41,126 nucleotides of DNA. It comes from Patescibacteria group bacterium (GTDB lineage: Bacteria > Patescibacteriota > Patescibacteriia > UBA10025 > JAHIVO01). Made by a program: the position numbers and the translations under genes. Positions 7,662 through 41,126 of the stretch are shown here, piece by piece (the first letter of the stretch is position 1; every line of letters starts with the position of its first letter). The stretch covers positions 305,940 to 347,065 of the forward strand of contig JBAZWB010000002.1 of the NCBI GenBank assembly GCA_041660605.1. The letters are read 5' to 3'. The notes beneath the pieces are model-generated. The model saw nothing but the letters and a program-made list of their open reading frames with translations. It searched no databases and was not told the DNA's origin.

Positions 7662-7894
7662 AATTGAGACTTTGTAAAGCGTCGCCCCACAATCTTGTCA
7701 TTGCGAGGAACGAGCGGAGCGAGTGACGTGGCAATCTGATGCGAAGCATCATTCTGAGCTCGCGAAGGATCCCGTGTAATTATGCAGCGAGATACTTCAC
7801 TGGCGTTCAGTACGGTGCTGCGCACCGGATTCTCACGTCGCCCCGTCATGCGACGGGGCTCCTCAGAATGACAGTGAGTGGGCGGTGCTTGCAA
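7662..7894. repeat. GC-rich composite palindromic repeat cluster in an AT-rich spacer
   Basis: Three copies of the word (g/a)tcatt(g/c)(c/t)gag: 7697-7708, 7748-7759, and inverted at 7861-7872. Hairpin ccccgtcatgcgacgggg at 7841-7858. All three ORF-track ORFs here run through the repeats. Confidence 0.7.
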
Positions 7895-21639: not shown

Positions 21640-23931
21640 TTAGAAAGGCTTACGTGGTGAAAATTTCCTGTCGCGAAATGGCGGGCGGGTTGGTTTAGAA
21701 TTGCGGAAACCACCGCCGTGCCCTCGGTCAAAACCGCCAGTCTCGATGGCTGAGCTGGGAATCACCAGATTGCTTTCCGCTCCCAGCGCTTTTACTGACA
21801 GGCTGATGCGGCCGCGCTCTTTATCGACTTCCAGCACTTTGACTTTCAGTTTCTGCCCGACCGACACTACGTCGGAAACATTGCGGATACGTCCGCTGGC
21901 AAATTCGGAAATATGCACCATGCCGTCCTTGCCCGGCGCCAGTTCAACGATCGCTCCGATTTCCCCGCCGCTGTTGCGGTCCTTCATGATCTGCGTAATG
22001 GTGCCTTCAAATACCTCGCCTACTTTAATTTCCCGAGTGATATCTTTGACCCAATTTTCCGCCTTGGTAGCCATCTCGGCGTTGGTAGAGGTAATGAATA
22101 TCAAGCCATCATCTTCAATATCAATCTTAGTTACATCCTGTCCTCCGCATTCGTCAATAATCTTGTTGATAGTTTCGCCGCCCTTACCAATGACATCGCG
22201 GATCAGTTCAGGATTAATTCTCACTGTGGTAATACGCGGCGCATATTTAGATAATTCCGGGCGCGGACTAGCAATAGCCTTATCCATTACGCCCAATATC
22301 TGCAGCCTGGCCAATCGCGCCCTTTCCAGGGCCTGCTCTATTACAGAAAAATTAATGCCATGCAATTTTACGTCCATCTGAATGGCGGTAATGCCGTTTT
22401 TCGTGCCGGCTACTTTGAAATCCATGTCGCCATTATGATCTTCAACACCCTGAATGTCGGTGATGAGCTTAAAATTATCAGGATTATCATTTTCAGTAAT
22501 CAAGCCGATGGCAATGCCAGCGACCGGATTTTTGATCGGCACGCCGGCGTCCATCAGGGCTAAACTCGAACCGCAGCAGGATGCCTGCGATGAAGAGCCA
22601 TTTGAAGATAAAACTTCGGAAACAACCCGAATAGTATAGGGGAATGACTCCTGATCCGGTAAAACCGGCGTCAGAGCTTTTTCCACTAGAGCACCATGTC
22701 CAATTTCGCGGCGTCCGGGCGATCTGACTGGCTTGGCTTCGCCAGTGGAAAATCCGGGGAAATTATAATGATGCATAAACCTTTTTTTGCCACTTTCCTC
22801 CATAGTGTCCAGCAGCTGTTCATCTCCGGGAGAACCGAGTGTAACGACTGATAAGACTTGCGTTTCCCCGCGTAAAAACACTCCGGAACCGTGGGTGCGG
22901 GGCAGGACGCCGGCTTCCGCGTTTAATTCGCGGATCTCGTCCAATTTACGGCCGTCAACCCTCTTTTCTTCTGTTAAAACCATCTGCCGGGCGGCCTCCT
23001 CATATATCTTATCAACCATGGTTACACCCTTGAGGCGTGCTTCCTTGGTCACTTCATTGTCTTTCTTCAGTGTTTCCTCCAGTTCGTCCTTCAGCTTGAC
23101 GATCTGCTCTGACTGCTCTTTTTTGCCTTTGCCAAAGACCTCCTTTATTTTATTCAGGCAAAAGCTTTCTACTTTCTCCTGGAGCTTGGCAATTTCTTTC
23201 AGCTCTTCTTCGGACGGCTCTCCCAGCTGTACGATTTTTTTCGGTTCGCCAATTTTCGACTGGATTTCTTTTACAAAACTAACTATTTTTTTCAGGTGCT
23301 TGTGTCCGAACTGCACGGCGGCGAGAATGTCTGCTTCCTGAACTTGCTGGCCGGAAGCTTCTATCATCAGCACCTTTTCCTCGTTGCCGGCCACTACAAT
23401 CTCCATGTCCGCCTTATCACGTGCTTCATAAGTAGGATTCAGCACCCACTCATTATTTATCCGGCCGACCCTGACTCCGGCAATGGGGCCGTTCCAGGGA
23501 ATCCGGGAAATCGACAGGGCGCAGGAAGCAGCCAGTAATGAAAGCATATCGGAATCATTTTCCTGGTCAACGGACAAAACCGTCAACACCACCTGCACGT
23601 CCTGCCTGATTTCATCGCTGAAAAGCGGGCGAACCGAGCGGTCAACCAGGCGGGAGGTCAAAATCGCTTCATCCGAAGGCCGGCCTTCGCGCTTGATAAA
23701 ACGCGAACCCTTGATTTTCCCGGCAGCATACAGCCGCTCTTCATAGTCAACCATCAAAGGGAAATAATCAATTCCCTCGCGAGTGGATTCATTCATGACG
23801 GCGGTCGCTAAAACTACGGTATCACCGTATTGAACCGTACAGGCGCCATCCGCCTGATTGGCAAAATGGCCAATTTCGAAGATTAATTTTTTTCCGGCGA
23901 CCTCGGTTTCGAACTTCTGGATTTTTTTCAT
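21640..23931 (-). CDS. pnp: polyribonucleotide nucleotidyltransferase (PNPase)
   Basis: Two RNase PH-like domains, KH (IGKGGETINKI) and S1 (GEVFEGTITQI) domains, plus a G/R-rich C-terminal tail. Confidence 0.92.
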   Translation of the reverse strand: MKKIQKFETEVAGKKLIFEIGHFANQADGACTVQYGDTVVLATAVMNESTREGIDYFPLMVDYEERLYAAGKIKGSRFIKREGRPSDEAILTSRLVDRSVRPLFSDEIRQDVQVVLTVLSVDQENDSDMLSLLAASCALSISRIPWNGPIAGVRVGRINNEWVLNPTYEARDKADMEIVVAGNEEKVLMIEASGQQVQEADILAAVQFGHKHLKKIVSFVKEIQSKIGEPKKIVQLGEPSEEELKEIAKLQEKVESFCLNKIKEVFGKGKKEQSEQIVKLKDELEETLKKDNEVTKEARLKGVTMVDKIYEEAARQMVLTEEKRVDGRKLDEIRELNAEAGVLPRTHGSGVFLRGETQVLSVVTLGSPGDEQLLDTMEESGKKRFMHHYNFPGFSTGEAKPVRSPGRREIGHGALVEKALTPVLPDQESFPYTIRVVSEVLSSNGSSSQASCCGSSLALMDAGVPIKNPVAGIAIGLITENDNPDNFKLITDIQGVEDHNGDMDFKVAGTKNGITAIQMDVKLHGINFSVIEQALERARLARLQILGVMDKAIASPRPELSKYAPRITTVRINPELIRDVIGKGGETINKIIDECGGQDVTKIDIEDDGLIFITSTNAEMATKAENWVKDITREIKVGEVFEGTITQIMKDRNSGGEIGAIVELAPGKDGMVHISEFASGRIRNVSDVVSVGQKLKVKVLEVDKERGRISLSVKALGAESNLVIPSSAIETGGFDRGHGGGFRNSKPTRPPFRDRKFSPRKPF

Positions 23932-25681: not shown

Positions 25682-26566
25682 ATGGAAAATAATATTGACC
25701 AATATTTCAAAAGCTTCCTGGAATATTTGGCCGCGCAAAAGCAGGTCTCGGCTTTGACTATACAAAACTATAAATTTTATCTTTCGCGTTTTAATTTATT
25801 GATACAAGTAAAAGAGCCGGCTGACATTAATATTGAAACGGTAAATAAATTCCGCGAACTCCTCGGCCAGATACGCAACCAGCGCGGGGAGCTGATGAAA
25901 CCCGTCACCCAGAACTACCACCTCATTGCCCTGCGTGCTTTTCTGGCTTATCTGAAAAATCTGGGCCTAACCGTGCTCGGTCCAGAAACTATCATCCTTA
26001 ATAAAATTGGAAAAAATATAATCAGCACTGTTGAACCTCAAAATATTGAGAAACTGCTGGAATCGCCTCTACACGCCAAGAATCCCAGCCTTATACAAAA
26101 ACGGGACAAGGCTATCCTGGAGCTGCTCCTCAGCACCGGCCTGAAAGTCTCCGAACTCTCCGCCCTGAAAAAAGGCCAGATTGATTTCCTGAAAAATTCG
26201 CTGACTATCCGGGGGCTGGGTGACCGTTTGCGCACGGTGGAGCTGACTAACCAGGCGAAATACTGGATCAAGCAGTATCTGGAATCGCGCCAGGATAATT
26301 TCCCCGCGCTTTTCATCCGTCATGACAAGGCAAAAACCAAACAGCTGAACAAAATCCTGCCGGAAGCCTACCAGCTGACGCCGCGGACTATCCAGCGCAT
26401 TATCAAGAAATACGCCAAAGCCGCCCAGCTCGATCCCGGCATTACTCCACAAACCCTGCGCAACTCCTACGCCAAATACCTCCTGGAAAAAGGCGAAGAC
26501 ATTAAAACTATCCAATCAATACTCGGGCACGCCTCAGTAGTAACTACCCACTTATACACCAAATAA
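25682..26566 (+). CDS. tyrosine site-specific recombinase, XerC/XerD family
   Basis: N-terminal SAM-like core-binding domain. The C-terminus has ...TPRTIQR..., LRNSYA, and LGHASVVTTHLYT with the catalytic Tyr. Confidence 0.8.
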   Translation: MENNIDQYFKSFLEYLAAQKQVSALTIQNYKFYLSRFNLLIQVKEPADINIETVNKFRELLGQIRNQRGELMKPVTQNYHLIALRAFLAYLKNLGLTVLGPETIILNKIGKNIISTVEPQNIEKLLESPLHAKNPSLIQKRDKAILELLLSTGLKVSELSALKKGQIDFLKNSLTIRGLGDRLRTVELTNQAKYWIKQYLESRQDNFPALFIRHDKAKTKQLNKILPEAYQLTPRTIQRIIKKYAKAAQLDPGITPQTLRNSYAKYLLEKGEDIKTIQSILGHASVVTTHLYTK

Positions 26567-26640: not shown

Positions 26641-26724
26641 GCCCCTGTAGTTTCCGCCAGAGGCGGATCACCCGCCCGCCCGCTCCGACTCGCGGAGCGA
26701 TGTCGGGCGCGGCAGGGTGACAAC
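26641..26724 (+). pseudogene. tRNA-Arg 5' remnant a (tRNA nt 1-16) split by a 68-nt GC-rich structured insert
   Basis: gcccctgtagtt (26641-26652) plus caac (26721-26724) equal nt 1-16 of the intact gene at 27131. The insert at 26653-26720 consists of nested hairpins (tccgcc/ggcgga, tcaccc/gggtga, cgctccg/cggagcg). Confidence 0.6.
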
Positions 26725-26748: not shown

Positions 26749-26847
26749 GCCCTTGTAGTTCAACGTCCCGTCCCAGCCGCTTCGCGGCGGGACGAGGATC
26801 CTCGCTCCGCCTCCGGCGGAGCGGGAGATAGAACGCCAGCCTTCTAA
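26749..26847 (+). pseudogene. tRNA-Arg(TCT) 5' remnant b (nt 1-38) with a 61-nt GC-rich insert in the D-loop
   Basis: gcccttgtagttcaacg [61 nt, 26766-26826] gatagaacgccagccttctaa. Removing the insert restores the intact gene sequence with one mismatch. Homology stops in the anticodon loop, where the GIY-YIG segment begins. Confidence 0.7.
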
Positions 26848-26861
26848 AATTTATTTTCAAA

Positions 26862-27119
26862 ATGAATTATTTCACTTATATACTAAGAAGTCTCAAAGAT
26901 AATTCATATTACATTGGTTCAACCGATAACTTAAATAAAAGAGTTGCCCAGCATAATCAGGGTAGCGTACGGTCAACAAAAGGTAGGTTACCATGGGAAC
27001 TTATTTACACAGAAGAATTTAATACACGGGGTGAAGCATTTATTAGAGAGAAATATATTAAATCCAGAAAGAAACGAAAATATATTGAGCAGCTTATTAA
27101 CAAGAAAGATAAACAATAA
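26862..27119 (+). CDS. small stand-alone GIY-YIG nuclease (UPF0213/YhbQ-like)
   Basis: YTYILRS..DNSYYIGSTDNLNKRVAQHNQG ... WELIYTEEF ... EAFIREKYIK, the canonical GIY-(10-11)-YIG, R and E pattern. Confidence 0.85.
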   Translation: MNYFTYILRSLKDNSYYIGSTDNLNKRVAQHNQGSVRSTKGRLPWELIYTEEFNTRGEAFIREKYIKSRKKRKYIEQLINKKDKQ

Positions 27120-27130
27120 CTCACTTTTCT

Positions 27131-27202
27131 GCCCCTGTAGTTCAACGGATAGAACGCCAGCCTTCTAAGCTGGACATAGAGGTCCGATTCCTCTCGGGGG
27201 CA
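27131..27202 (+). tRNA. tRNA-Arg (anticodon TCT), no encoded CCA
   Basis: Manual cloverleaf: acceptor gcccctg/cgggggc, D-stem gttc/gaac, anticodon arm ccagc-cttctaa-gctgg, T-arm agagg-tccgatt-cctct, discriminator A. T-loop position 55 reads C instead of T. Confidence 0.8.
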
Positions 27203-27218
27203 AATAAACAATAAGTTC

Positions 27219-27340
27219 GATTCTCAAAAACATTAATACAATAAAATGATGAGATCCCGCTCTGAGCGAAGTCGAAGGGGCGGGGTTCCTGGGGACACTT
27301 TGCGAGTTTAAGAATACTAACTTTAAGATTCTCGAAAACA
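27219..27340 (+). repeat. 14-nt direct repeats flanking a 94-nt segment with a GC-rich hairpin core
   Basis: gattctcaaaaaca (27219-27232) and gattctcgaaaaca (27327-27340) match at 13 of 14. The interior contains cccgctctgagcgaagtcgaaggggcggg. Confidence 0.45.
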
Positions 27341-29023: not shown

Positions 29024-29156
29024 GGGACGTTAGCTCCCCGCACCATACTCACTCCGTTAGTAGGTACGGGGCAGGCAGCTTGCCCCGCCAAGAACTGGCG
29101 GGGTGAAGTAGAGCAGCTGCCTCTTACTTGTCCCGTCTGAATAGACGGGGAGCAAC
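29024..29156 (+). pseudogene. tRNA-Lys(CTT) remnant A with a D-loop insert and a 24-nt insert at position 37/38; T-arm decayed
   Basis: gggacgttagctc [67 nt GC-rich] tgaagtagagcagctgcctctta [cttgtcccgtctgaatagacgggg] agcaac. No T-arm or 3' acceptor follows. Confidence 0.65.
29036..29071. repeat. hairpin element H1, copy 1 (in the D-loop of remnant A)
   Basis: ccccgcaccatactcactccgttagtaggtacgggg. About 28 of 36 positions match the reverse complement of the copy at 29697-29734. Confidence 0.65.
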
Positions 29157-29220
29157 AGGTCGCCTTGCGTCATCAGAAGAATCAAAAAAAATAATTAATA
29201 AATACTAATTTTCATATTAT

Positions 29221-29326
29221 GGGACGTTAGCTCAGTTGGTAGAGCAGCTGCCTCTTAAGCAGCGGGTCGCAGGTTCGCCCGGTCATCCGACCGGGCAGCC
29301 CGGGGTTTATCCCCGGGCGAGTCCTG
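29221..29326 (+). pseudogene. tRNA-Lys(CTT) remnant B: intact from nt 1 to the T-loop, 41-nt double-hairpin insert in the T-loop, 3' end missing
   Basis: gggacgt ta gctc agttggta gagc a gctgc ctcttaa gcagc gggtc gcagg ttcg [29278-29318] gagtcctg. Homology then ends 9 nt short of a complete tRNA. Confidence 0.7.
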
Positions 29327-29336
29327 ATGAAATTAT

Positions 29337-29597
29337 ATGACATACATTTACTTTCTACATCTATCAAATGGTGATATTTATAAAGGACTGACTGATCGGT
29401 TAAAAGAGAGAATCTCCGAGCATCAACAGGGCAAAGTGAAATCAACAAAAAACTACCGCCCTTTTAAATTAATCGGTTATGAATACTATTCACTAAAAAG
29501 TGATGCGGAACGCAGGGAAAAATTTCTTAAAACGACTGAAGGCCGGCGTTTATTAAAACAACAATATCGGGATATTATCAATAATACGCGCCCATAG
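29337..29597 (+). CDS. small stand-alone GIY-YIG nuclease (UPF0213/YhbQ-like)
   Basis: YIYFLHLSNGDIYKGLTDRLKERISEHQQG ... FKLIGYEYY ... AERREKFLK. The last 10 nt, including the TAG stop, overlap the 5' end of tRNA-Lys. Confidence 0.8.
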   Translation: MTYIYFLHLSNGDIYKGLTDRLKERISEHQQGKVKSTKNYRPFKLIGYEYYSLKSDAERREKFLKTTEGRRLLKQQYRDIINNTRP

Positions 29598-29659
29598 CTC
29601 AATGGTAGAGCATCTGCCTCTTAAGCAGGGTGTTGCAGGTTCGAATCCTGCTGGGCGCA
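29588..29659 (+). tRNA. tRNA-Lys (anticodon CTT), no encoded CCA
   Basis: Manual cloverleaf: gcgccca ta gctc aatggta gagc a tctgc ctcttaa gcagg gtgtt gcagg ttcgaat cctgc tgggcgc a. Confidence 0.9.
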
Positions 29660-29692
29660 TTTTAAAAAATATTTAAAATCAGCTGCCTCTTA

Positions 29693-29734
29693 CTTGCCCC
29701 GTACCTAACGAACAGCGTGAGTTATGGTATGGGG
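29693..29734. repeat. hairpin element H1, copy 2 (inverted relative to copy 1), inserted at tRNA position 37/38
   Basis: cttg ccccgtacc taacgaacagcgtgagttat ggtatgggg, with a 9-bp stem. Confidence 0.65.
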
Positions 29735-29758
29735 AGCAGCGGGTCGCAGGTTCGCCTG

Positions 29759-29776
29759 CCCCGTCGCATGACGGGG
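29759..29776. repeat. hairpin element H2 (ccccgtc-gcat-gacgggg)
   Basis: Exact reverse complement of 7841-7858. The same cccgtc/gacggg stem with another loop occurs at 29132-29149. Confidence 0.7.
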
Positions 29777-29921
29777 AGCCCTGCACGCCCCACCAATTAA
29801 TAATAGAATAAAACGAAGTAAACCCTTGCGCTTGCTCAAAGCCAAATTTTCGGCTATATTATTATTATATTATAGCGATTTTTTTATTCAAAAGCAGGCA
29901 TAATATTTTTCTAAAAAACGT

Positions 29922-40555: not shown

Positions 40556-40603
40556 GCGGACGTGGCCCTACACCACTTCGCTACCGCTCCGGATGCAGGG
40601 CAA
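40556..40603 (+). pseudogene. tRNA-Leu 5' remnant (nt 1-15) split by a 33-nt insert
   Basis: gcggacgtggc [40567-40599] gcaa equals the first 15 nt of the intact tRNA-Leu 46 nt downstream. Confidence 0.5.
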
Positions 40604-40648: not shown

Positions 40649-40736
40649 GCGGACGTGGCGCAATTTGGTAGACGCGCTAGCTTGAGGTGCTAGTGCCCTC
40701 ACGGGCTTGGAGGTTCAAGTCCTCTCGTCCGCACCA
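40649..40736 (+). tRNA. tRNA-Leu (anticodon GAG), class II long variable arm, CCA encoded
   Basis: gcggacg tg ... ctagc ttgaggt gctag, variable arm tgccctcacgggctt, T-arm ggagg ttcaagt cctct, acceptor cgtccgc, then a cca. Close to the E. coli tRNA-Leu layout. Confidence 0.9.
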
Positions 40737-40856: not shown

Positions 40857-40932
40857 GGTGGCTATAGCACAGTGGTCAGTGCACTGGTCTGTGGCACCAG
40901 GAACGAGGGTTCAAATCCCTCTAGCCACCCCA
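40857..40932 (+). tRNA. tRNA-His (anticodon GTG) with encoded G-1 and CCA
   Basis: g gtggcta ta gcac agtggtca gtgc a ctggt ctgtggc accag gaac gaggg ttcaaat ccctc tagccac c cca. Confidence 0.9.
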
Positions 40933-41109
40933 GAACAGCCCATTTAAACAGGAAGTGGTTTGTTTTGGTATTAGAGAAATTTTACGGCTCGGGATTTGAA
41001 CGGGCAGAAGCGAGTCAACACTGAGTAAAACGAAGTGGCAGACGAGCGTCGACGAGCTGCCGGTGGCAGGTCGTCGCTGCCCAGGACGAGTCCCCGCAGG
41101 GGACGAGAT

Positions 41110-41126
41110 AATCCCTCTAGCCACCC
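41110..41126 (+). pseudogene. tRNA-His 3' remnant (T-loop to acceptor) at the window edge, preceded by GC-rich hairpins
   Basis: aatccctctagccaccc is identical to 40914-40930 of the intact gene. It is preceded by gacgagtccccgcaggggacgag, so the break lies inside the T-loop. Confidence 0.5.

Follow-up and report, generated by a model that had tools for sequence, protein, structure and literature searches.

Palindromic hairpin elements in tRNA loops beside small GIY-YIG nuclease genes of Patescibacteria and other bacteria: a possible tRNA-targeting homing cassette

Introduction

The Seg genes of T4-like phages, especially SegB within a tRNA cluster, have a GIY-YIG core, lie between or against tRNA genes, and show selfish presence/absence and decay. 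We describe here a similar arrangement from a bacterial chromosome, within 41,126 nucleotides of a Patescibacteria group bacterium (assembly GCA_041660605.1, contig JBAZWB010000002.1, positions 305,940 to 347,065 of the forward strand; this whole stretch is called the window), where genes for an 85-aa and an 86-aa GIY-YIG nuclease adjoin intact tRNA genes and where partial tRNA copies carry GC-rich hairpins inserted within their loops. The insert in one tRNA-Arg remnant of the window is built as TCCCG-hairpin-CGAGGATCCTCG-hairpin-CGGGA; loci L004 and L005 share this architecture, and the family was named E. We lean towards reading the hairpins as palindromic, often double-hairpin DNA elements that accompany a selfish, homing-type cassette targeting tRNA genes and built around a nuclease that consists of the GIY-YIG domain only.

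A nuclease-linked segmental amplification of a tRNA region is reported for SegB (PMC13096335). The Seg proteins, at about 200 aa or more, include a DNA-binding domain, whereas the present ones are of 80-91 aa and catalytic only; the Seg genes are phage genes, whereas the present cassettes are chromosomal (Patescibacteria, Bacteroidota) and E is absent from viral contigs. We know of no Seg locus that features a partial tRNA duplication or a hairpin plug. A mobile mitochondrial GIY-YIG open reading frame (ORF) that carries a replacement gene end was reportedly found at atp6 of Allomyces by Paquin, Laforest and Lang in 1994; like the cassette, that element enters a conserved gene whose working end it supplies or restores, and the resident end that it displaces survives as a pseudogene fragment, but its target is a mitochondrial protein-coding gene and not a bacterial tRNA, and it has no loop-specific hairpin plug. 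In common with free-standing GIY-YIG homing genes, the genes described here have intact catalytic residues and are found beside a conserved gene with a patchy and decaying distribution, but the DNA-binding domain of such genes is missing. Integrative elements that target tRNA genes are similar in their target, in restoring its function with a carried or duplicated segment, and in the accumulation of displaced partial copies; they differ in that the cassette is about 0.3 kb with a nuclease rather than an island with an integrase and att sites, and in that 5' parts of the tRNA are duplicated as often as 3' parts, with junctions in loops.

For the hairpins, other systems are closer. Mitochondrial double-hairpin elements (DHE), the GC clusters of yeast, and the GC-rich palindromes flanking tRNA genes in Neurospora mitochondria are short, GC-rich within an AT-richer genome, and folded into two stem-loops; they have no target-site duplication and are dispersed, apparently mobile, and sometimes located inside RNA genes (PMC2800124, PMC10085805). 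E has this form (GC-rich, ~26-79 bp, two stem-loops, no duplication of the flank), which is a likeness of form only; it differs from DHE in being bacterial, in sharing the core CGAGGATCCTCG and the ends TCCCG/CGGGA across phyla, and in having a nuclease gene as partner. Repetitive extragenic palindromes (REP, BIME, REPIN), miniature inverted-repeat transposable elements (MITE), and the Rickettsia palindromic elements are, like E, multi-copy intergenic palindromes, and those of Rickettsia also insert inside genes. REP and REPIN sequences with a RAYT differ, as no RAYT recurs near E (at least 120 loci; whole genomes not searched), and REPs are species-specific whereas E is conserved across phyla. 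In comparison with a MITE, E has terminal inverted repeats of 5-6 nt (TCCCG/CGGGA) and dispersed copies but no target-site duplication. Introns of archaeal and eukaryal tRNAs resemble the inserts in position (37/38, D-loop and T-loop, the non-canonical archaeal range) and in their shortness (22-94 nt), but here the host is a bacterium, there is no bulge-helix-bulge, the host copies are truncated, and the elements occur also outside tRNAs and in both orientations. In none of these systems is a nuclease of a single domain found together with partially duplicated tRNAs and with double-hairpin plugs specific to loops, all on a bacterial chromosome, and the arrangement was not found described in Rfam or in the literature (subscription journals not covered).

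Results

tRNA remnants and hairpin inserts in the window

Four intact tRNA genes (Arg-TCT, Lys-CTT, Leu-GAG and His-GTG) were found in the window with ARAGORN and Rfam, along with one additional weak match at 29221-29290 (part of remnant Lys B; Rfam partial, 33 bits), and the limits of the tRNA fragments were set by a k-mer and alignment analysis (Table 1). Remnants lie across the nuclease gene from the intact tRNA in both the Arg and the Lys cluster (Arg R2, Lys B), and remnant Lys D follows the intact tRNA. The 85-aa ORF ends 10 nt upstream of the intact tRNA-Arg, and R2 ends 14 nt before its ATG. The 86-aa ORF overlaps the start of the intact tRNA-Lys, its TAG stop (29595-29597) being positions 8-10 of the tRNA, and 10 nt separate the end of Lys B from its start codon. 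The remnant Lys allele has the acceptor sequence GGGACGT, versus GCGCCCA in the intact gene at 29588-29659, and because the latter is a divergent allele it was imported or converted. Every insert-bearing copy that could be evaluated was partial and had an intact copy of the same isoacceptor adjacent to it, which bears out the statement, in an earlier note on this DNA made from its letters alone, that all insert-bearing copies are truncated.

The same note had placed the inserts of Lys A and Lys D exactly between nucleotides 37 and 38 and those of Lys B and Lys D in the T-loop after TTCG, and both placements were reproduced, at A37/A38 by k-mer and alignment and at 57/58 with an ambiguity of 1-2 nt; the His remnant (41110-41126), described as broken inside the T-loop, does begin there, at position 57. 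D-arm inserts had been assigned to Lys A, to the Arg remnants and to the Leu remnant; the first two stood, but not the third, where the 11-nt remnant is followed by sequence (40567-40603) that is not a hairpin (fold z = +0.38). Deletion of the inserts left colinear tRNA at 7 of 8 sites. At the remaining site, the D-loop of Lys A, the predicted restoration to the nucleotide failed because the insert stands in place of AGTTG and extra bases remain.

The tRNA inserts of the window were much more stable as DNA folds than shuffled sequence (z-scores of -2.9 to -6.0), and 9 of the 12 GC-rich hairpins in the window (stem of 7 bp or more, loop of 9 nt or less) were inside the tRNA clusters, which take up about 2 kb. 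Site 37/38 is occupied twice, by different hairpins (Lys A and D), as is the T-loop (Lys B and D), and a single hairpin, H1, sits in one D-loop and at one 37/38 in opposite orientations, so that these were independent insertions directed at loops. The H1 pair, reported earlier to occur in both orientations with about 28 of 36 positions in common, are reverse complements with 31 identical positions, a score reached by none of 2000 shuffles; the recurrence of H2 at 7841-7858 proved to be an exact reverse complement. CCA is encoded in Lys D (29793-29795), tRNA-Leu (40734-40736) and tRNA-His (40930-40932), and not in tRNA-Arg or the intact tRNA-Lys (Lys C); the CCA-less tRNAs beside the nuclease genes may be cassette-linked alleles of different origin.

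The nuclease gene and its recurrence beside tRNA genes

Proteins of the family have 80-91 aa and comprise the catalytic domain only. Residues Y6, Y17, R27, H31 and E63 of the catalytic site were invariant in an alignment of 29 sequences (the window pair and 27 homologues). When the family profile was compared with the PDB, the best matches were the UPF0213 proteins BH0048 and EF2693 (1e-15 and 3e-13), followed by SLX1 structure-specific endonucleases (~1e-6); the PDB relatives of the 85-aa protein were 1zg2, 1ywl and SLX1.

Seven nuclease homologues (P0002, P0007, P0008, P0013, P0014, P0016 and P0030) were picked without reference to tRNAs or hairpins, and the layout was the same at 7/7 loci: the nuclease gene was flush with an intact tRNA (Lys, Glu, Ser, Thr, Tyr or Ala; L132 has tRNA remnants only), and a partial copy of the same tRNA carried a GC-rich palindromic insert in the D-loop, the anticodon loop/arm or the T-loop. 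The layout recurs at some 20 more loci in Patescibacteria, Bacteroidota and Ignavibacteriota. It takes two forms that are mirror images of each other, class 1 being tRNA(1-19) / E / tRNA(20 to ~30) - nuclease gene - intact tRNA (the window Arg cluster, L062, L071, L081, L089, L108, and L111 in tandem), and class 2 being intact tRNA - nuclease gene - short tRNA piece / insert / rest of tRNA (L004, L007, L073, L115, L132); remnants are present on both sides in the window Lys cluster, L005, L129, L131 and L209.

All 14 inserts with exact resumption of the tRNA (pooled over loci) were at unpaired positions of the cloverleaf, and the insert positions were 16-21 in the D-loop, 34-38 in the anticodon loop and 55-58 in the T-loop. 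When all internal fragment ends were pooled over loci (n = 81), 49 were in loops and 32 in stems. Amplification of the unit was seen at L007, with four tandem copies of the nuclease gene plus a 3' tRNA-Ser fragment with a T-loop insert, and at L111, with a tandem array of at least two copies. The duplication at L071 takes in ~85 nt of leader and therefore arose locally. Versions with a spacer are nuclease-deleted derivatives (L068 versus L089; L066 versus L071), and L209 keeps only the last ~23 codons of the GIY-YIG gene, so that distribution of the nuclease is patchy and decaying; the gene was flush against a tRNA in every locus.

At some loci the whole anticodon arm has been swapped for a TCCCG...CGGGA hairpin (L129 at ~1440-1500 and 1822-1890; L054 at ~1010-1060), and one replacement in L129, TCCCG-CCTTTGG-CGGGA, has exactly the 17 nt of a normal anticodon arm. 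At L075, from Sungbacteria, region 1860-2350 contains four copies of tRNA-Lys(TTT), one with E at 25/26 and a double hairpin at ~37/38; unit junctions there are at the start of the T-loop, and the intact copy lies between the arms of an inverted repeat, CCCCGACACTC / GAGTGTCGGGG.

The stop codon of the GIY-YIG gene is often inside the downstream tRNA gene (window 29595-29597; L089, L111, L062, L130, L005, L129, L131), and is then the D-arm TAG or, for tRNA-Tyr, a TAA of the anticodon loop. The nuclease mRNA would therefore lose its stop codon when RNase P cleaves at the 5' end of the tRNA, and this could limit expression of the nuclease. Tyrosine recombinase genes occur a few hundred bases from three cassettes (window 25682-26566; L131 2278-3189; L132 52-1254), those of the window and L131 being XerC/D-like. 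An integrase was considered as mobiliser and rejected; such a gene lies by the window Arg cluster and in L131 and L132, but none of the recombinase families recurs across the at least 120 E loci, and the proximity may reflect only the general affinity of integrases for tRNA loci.

The E family of hairpin elements

A scan for the E motif, with one genome per species, gave at least 120 loci, with 124 E copies among the matches listed, to which the counts below refer; about 15 matches in high-GC genomes look like chance. Most of the listed matches came from Bacteroidota (Bacteroidales, Rikenellaceae, Saprospiraceae, Cyclobacteriaceae), Patescibacteria (Saccharibacteria, Yanofsky-, Sung-, Magasanik-, Kerfeld- and Taylorbacteria, and others) and Ignavibacteriaceae. 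The ends of E and its 12-nt core are conserved across these phyla, and the two hairpins are variable in sequence and nearly perfectly paired, giving a fold of two bulged hairpins or a four-way junction. Folding has no strand bias (mean difference 0.02 kcal/mol for 18 tRNA-oriented copies). The flanks show a preference for T-A-G/E/C-T-A, and no target-site duplication was found at E, the tRNA resuming exactly with no duplicated bases. E is multi-copy and dispersed, with several loci per metagenome-assembled genome (MAG) and the same E at different loci (L028, L064, L127). No Rfam family matches E or the inserts, with no intron match even at an E-value of 10 or less. Carriage of E by phages was rejected, as there were 0 matches in 2.9 million viral contigs.

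Between 18 and 20 of the 124 copies are in a tRNA D-loop directly after G18-G19 (...AGTTGG/E/ATAGAGC...). The host, of Arg, Pro, Ala, Met or Val type among others, is almost always a 5' fragment. A GIY-YIG ORF follows it within ~30 nt at no fewer than 8 loci (9 copies), and elsewhere the sequence that follows is a short AT-rich spacer; at all 14 loci that could be evaluated, the host had an intact tRNA gene for the same isoacceptor next to it. Of the ORF families found within 1.5 kb of E at the at least 120 loci, only that of the small GIY-YIG gene recurs; no transposase or recombinase family does so. Deletion of E in silico gave an ARAGORN-complete tRNA for 1 of the 124 (L073), with a poor acceptor stem and an intact twin upstream.

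A metagenome scan for the T-loop type of motif, TCCCG..GGACTCTCG..CGGAG, gave ~124 matches, of which only L209 and L147 are real elements, the remainder being chance matches in high-GC soil contigs. The E copies of Bacteroidales are often found between runs of 6-8-nt tandem repeats on both sides (e.g., TTCACAG, CCAACTG, GTGACGG, CCTTAG/CCTCAG; L034, L058, L080, L091, L101, L104, L107, L118, L119, L127), a second habitat of the element.

Other features of the window

An intergenic stack of GC-rich palindromic segments without a tRNA fragment is present at 7690-7880, and includes an element of ~120 nt with the inverted repeats TCATTCTGAG (7749-7758) and CTCAGAATGA (7861-7870) that holds the second H2 copy. 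Region 27210-27300, 3' of the intact tRNA-Arg, has a T-arm-like fragment (GTTCGATTCTC) and a GC-rich segment (GATCCCGCTCTGAGCGAAGTCGAAGGGGCGGGGTTCC), which may be left over from another tRNA or element. Two contigs assembled from short reads of the same organism in two other samples, L001 and L002, end at about window positions 29218 and 40690; both break exactly inside Lys B, and L001 also at the Leu region, so that these repeats fragment assemblies. The PNPase encoded at 21640-23931 shares 72-75% identity with its counterparts in MAGs of Patescibacteria and Kerfeldbacteria, which places the source of the window among these bacteria. A 572-aa protein encoded at 35207-36925 matches the Por_Secre_tail domain (type IX secretion sorting), which is unexpected in Patescibacteria.

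Table 1. Nuclease genes, tRNA genes, tRNA remnants and hairpin inserts in the window (positions are those of the window)
Feature	Position	Strand	Evidence or remark
Second H2 copy	7841-7858	-	exact reverse complement; within larger palindromic intergenic element 7749-7870
tRNA-Arg remnant R1, tRNA positions 1-12	26641-26652	+	exact 12-mer match to intact tRNA-Arg
GC-rich hairpin (26653-26667) and composite hairpin (26668-26720)	26653-26720		directly 3' of R1; DNA fold -27.9 kcal/mol, z = -5.0
tRNA-Arg remnant R2, 5' part, positions 1-17	26749-26765	+	one mismatch
Canonical E element, 61 nt, in R2 D-loop	26766-26826		fold -29.1 kcal/mol, z = -5.8; single pattern match vs 0 expected
tRNA-Arg remnant R2 continuation, positions 18-38, ending in anticodon loop	26827-26847	+	exact 21-nt match; colinear after E removal
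85-aa GIY-YIG nuclease gene (UPF0213/SLX1-like)	26862-27119	+	Pfam PF01541, 3e-18
Intact tRNA-Arg (TCT)	27130-27203	+	ARAGORN; Rfam 66.6 bits
Lys remnant A, old tRNA-Lys(CTT) allele	29024-29175	+	degenerate 3' part
Lys A, positions 1-13	29024-29036
Lys A D-loop insert	29037-29107		inverted H1 29037-29071 and second hairpin 29083-29103
Lys A, positions 19-37 (positions 38 to ~50 follow the insert at 37/38)	29108-29126
Lys A insert at 37/38	29127-29150		24-nt hairpin
Lys remnant B, old allele	29221-29326	+	29221-29277 = positions 1-57; 29320-29326 = positions 58-64
Lys B T-loop insert	29278-29319		42-nt double hairpin; fold z = -6.0
86-aa GIY-YIG gene	29337-29597	+	Pfam PF01541, 3e-12; translation
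Intact tRNA-Lys (CTT), "Lys C", other allele than remnants	29588-29659	+	no encoded CCA; ARAGORN; Rfam 75.6 bits
Lys remnant D, old allele, positions 25-76 and CCA	29680-29795	+	29680-29692 = 25-37; 29735-29754 = 38-57; 29777-29795 = 58-76 plus CCA
Lys D insert at 37/38	29693-29734		42-nt H1
Lys D T-loop insert	29755-29776		22-nt H2
tRNA-Leu remnant, positions 1-11	40556-40566	+	11 nt only
Intact tRNA-Leu (GAG)	40649-40736		ARAGORN and Rfam
Intact tRNA-His (GTG)	40858-40932		ARAGORN and Rfam
GC-rich hairpins, then tRNA-His remnant	41040-41126	+	hairpins 41040-41109, fold z = -3.3
tRNA-His remnant, positions 57-73	41110-41126		starts inside T-loop; cut by window end

Discussion

The architecture, its recurrence across phyla, the precision of the loop positions, the strand-neutral hairpins at the level of DNA and the exclusive partnership of E with the GIY-YIG gene are observed, and from these a course of events can be proposed. 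The cassette would sit flush against a tRNA gene and would either duplicate part of the resident tRNA locally (window Arg cluster, L071) or bring a divergent complete allele (Lys C), so that a working tRNA would always be regenerated beside the nuclease gene. Displaced 5' or 3' parts of the old tRNA would stay on the far side as dead fragments bearing hairpins; repeated rounds would produce tRNA graveyards (Lys A, B and D) and tandem arrays, and later decay of the nuclease gene would leave hairpin-plugged fragments beside an intact tRNA. On this view tDNA would be broken by the nuclease, plausibly a structure-specific enzyme that attacks cloverleaf loops when they are extruded or single-stranded, and the tRNA duplications may arise from repair of these breaks. 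The hairpins could be installed at the breaks, or could persist by stopping re-cleavage of the tRNA repeats or recombination between them.

Several observations weigh against this proposal. The intact tRNA beside the cassette has the same loop sequences as the remnants yet is uninterrupted, and the immunity of the live copy is unexplained. A separate DNA-binding or recognition domain is not present in the 80-91-aa proteins. L075 has a similar tRNA graveyard without a nuclease gene, so that GIY-less graveyards exist. About 80% of the listed E copies are outside tRNAs with no GIY-YIG within 8 kb, and E can therefore spread or persist without the nuclease gene in cis. Finally, the Lys inserts of the window are without the E core, so that their link to E is one of shared architecture and position and not of sequence homology.

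The earlier note had set mobile hairpins that accumulate in dead tRNA copies against intron-like sequences removed from transcripts, and the former is closer to the data, the elements being dispersed, multi-copy, in both orientations, and found independently at the same loop positions; it is incomplete in that the dead copies are displaced parts of tRNA genes around a GIY-YIG gene, and not ordinary pseudogenes. In its pure form, such a view would have the hairpins as autonomous miniature palindromic elements (MITE-, REP- or DHE-like) to whose target preference tDNA loops happen to conform, the preference being TAG/CTA for E and/or single-stranded loops, with insertions in live tRNAs purged and the cassette only supplying redundant copies. 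We consider this a serious alternative, if a doubtful one. It would account for the majority of listed E copies that are outside tRNAs and far from any GIY-YIG gene, for the presence of one and the same E, in either orientation, at loci of a single genome that are otherwise unrelated (L028, L064, L127), for the different hairpins at the same site in different window copies, and for a flank logo, T-A-G/E/C-T-A, that matches GG/CTAGAGC of the D-arm. It does not explain why all GIY-YIG-associated remnants are occupied (7/7 unbiased loci and the window), which is above the expectation for neutral accumulation, why E keeps a fixed distance of 8-21 nt to that end of the remnant which faces the cassette, or why E is amplified along with the unit in arrays (L111, L007); and neither a transposase nor another gene that might mobilise E is found repeatedly beside it.

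Somewhat more speculatively, the SLX1-like GIY-YIG protein and the TCCCG...CGGGA double-hairpin elements might together form a distinct, new class of bacterial mobile element that is targeted by structure, a suggestion we put forward as tentative and rather unlikely. The nuclease would then recognise branched or cruciform DNA, both in its own palindromic element and in an extruded tDNA cloverleaf, and would cut the loops, with the hairpin installed at the cut. Choice of target by DNA shape and not by sequence would explain why many tRNA species are hit, at D-, anticodon and T-loops.

That the hairpins are functional signals recruited by the cassette, acting as DNA or RNA structures, appears improbable. 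They might terminate, insulate or process read-through from the old promoter, stabilise the nuclease mRNA, or block truncated tRNAs from folding and titrating tRNA enzymes. The remnant with its hairpin does separate the promoter region of the old tRNA from the start codon of the GIY-YIG gene, and the frequent location of the nuclease stop codon inside the tRNA implies co-transcription of the two. Positions G18-G19 and T54-C56, which form the tRNA elbow, are adjoined by the D-loop and T-loop inserts. Against this, there is no strand asymmetry, both hairpin orders occur, no T-run follows the hairpins, and the same family is abundant in unrelated intergenic contexts; an RNA-level function of E was rejected on present evidence because E has no strand bias.

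The intron-like reading, by which an as yet unknown bacterial mechanism would remove the inserts and let insert-bearing copies yield mature tRNA, has in its favour that inserts are confined to loops, including the canonical 37/38, and that closed hairpins bring their own ends together, but it is very hard to credit, since the host copies are partial (without the acceptor strand or more) and redundant beside an intact copy that is always adjacent, E deletion gives a full tRNA in only 1/124 listed sequences, E has no strand bias and is mostly outside tRNAs, and no bulge-helix-bulge (two 3-nt bulges, 4-bp helix) was found at the 37/38 inserts of Lys A and D (minimum-free-energy RNA folds, by inspection only), which have no segment complementary to the anticodon-loop bases. 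A group I intron was ruled out, the inserts being of 22-71 nt, with no ribozyme core of ~200 nt or more and no Rfam intron match.

If the homing-cassette reading is true, a minimal nuclease cassette would routinely enter tRNA genes of Patescibacteria, Bacteroidota and Ignavibacteriota, keeping the tRNA functional and leaving hairpin-plugged debris, and loop-positioned inserts in bacterial tRNA-like sequences should not be taken as introns. This would explain the clustered tRNA pseudogene fragments in these genomes, the assembly breaks at tRNA loci, and the mis-annotated GIY-YIG ORFs that read into tRNAs. It would also provide a bacterial counterpart of the mitochondrial double-hairpin elements and a testable case of target choice based on DNA structure, and would suggest a candidate role in the cell, or else a selfish origin, for the domain-only GIY-YIG proteins of the uncharacterised UPF0213 family.

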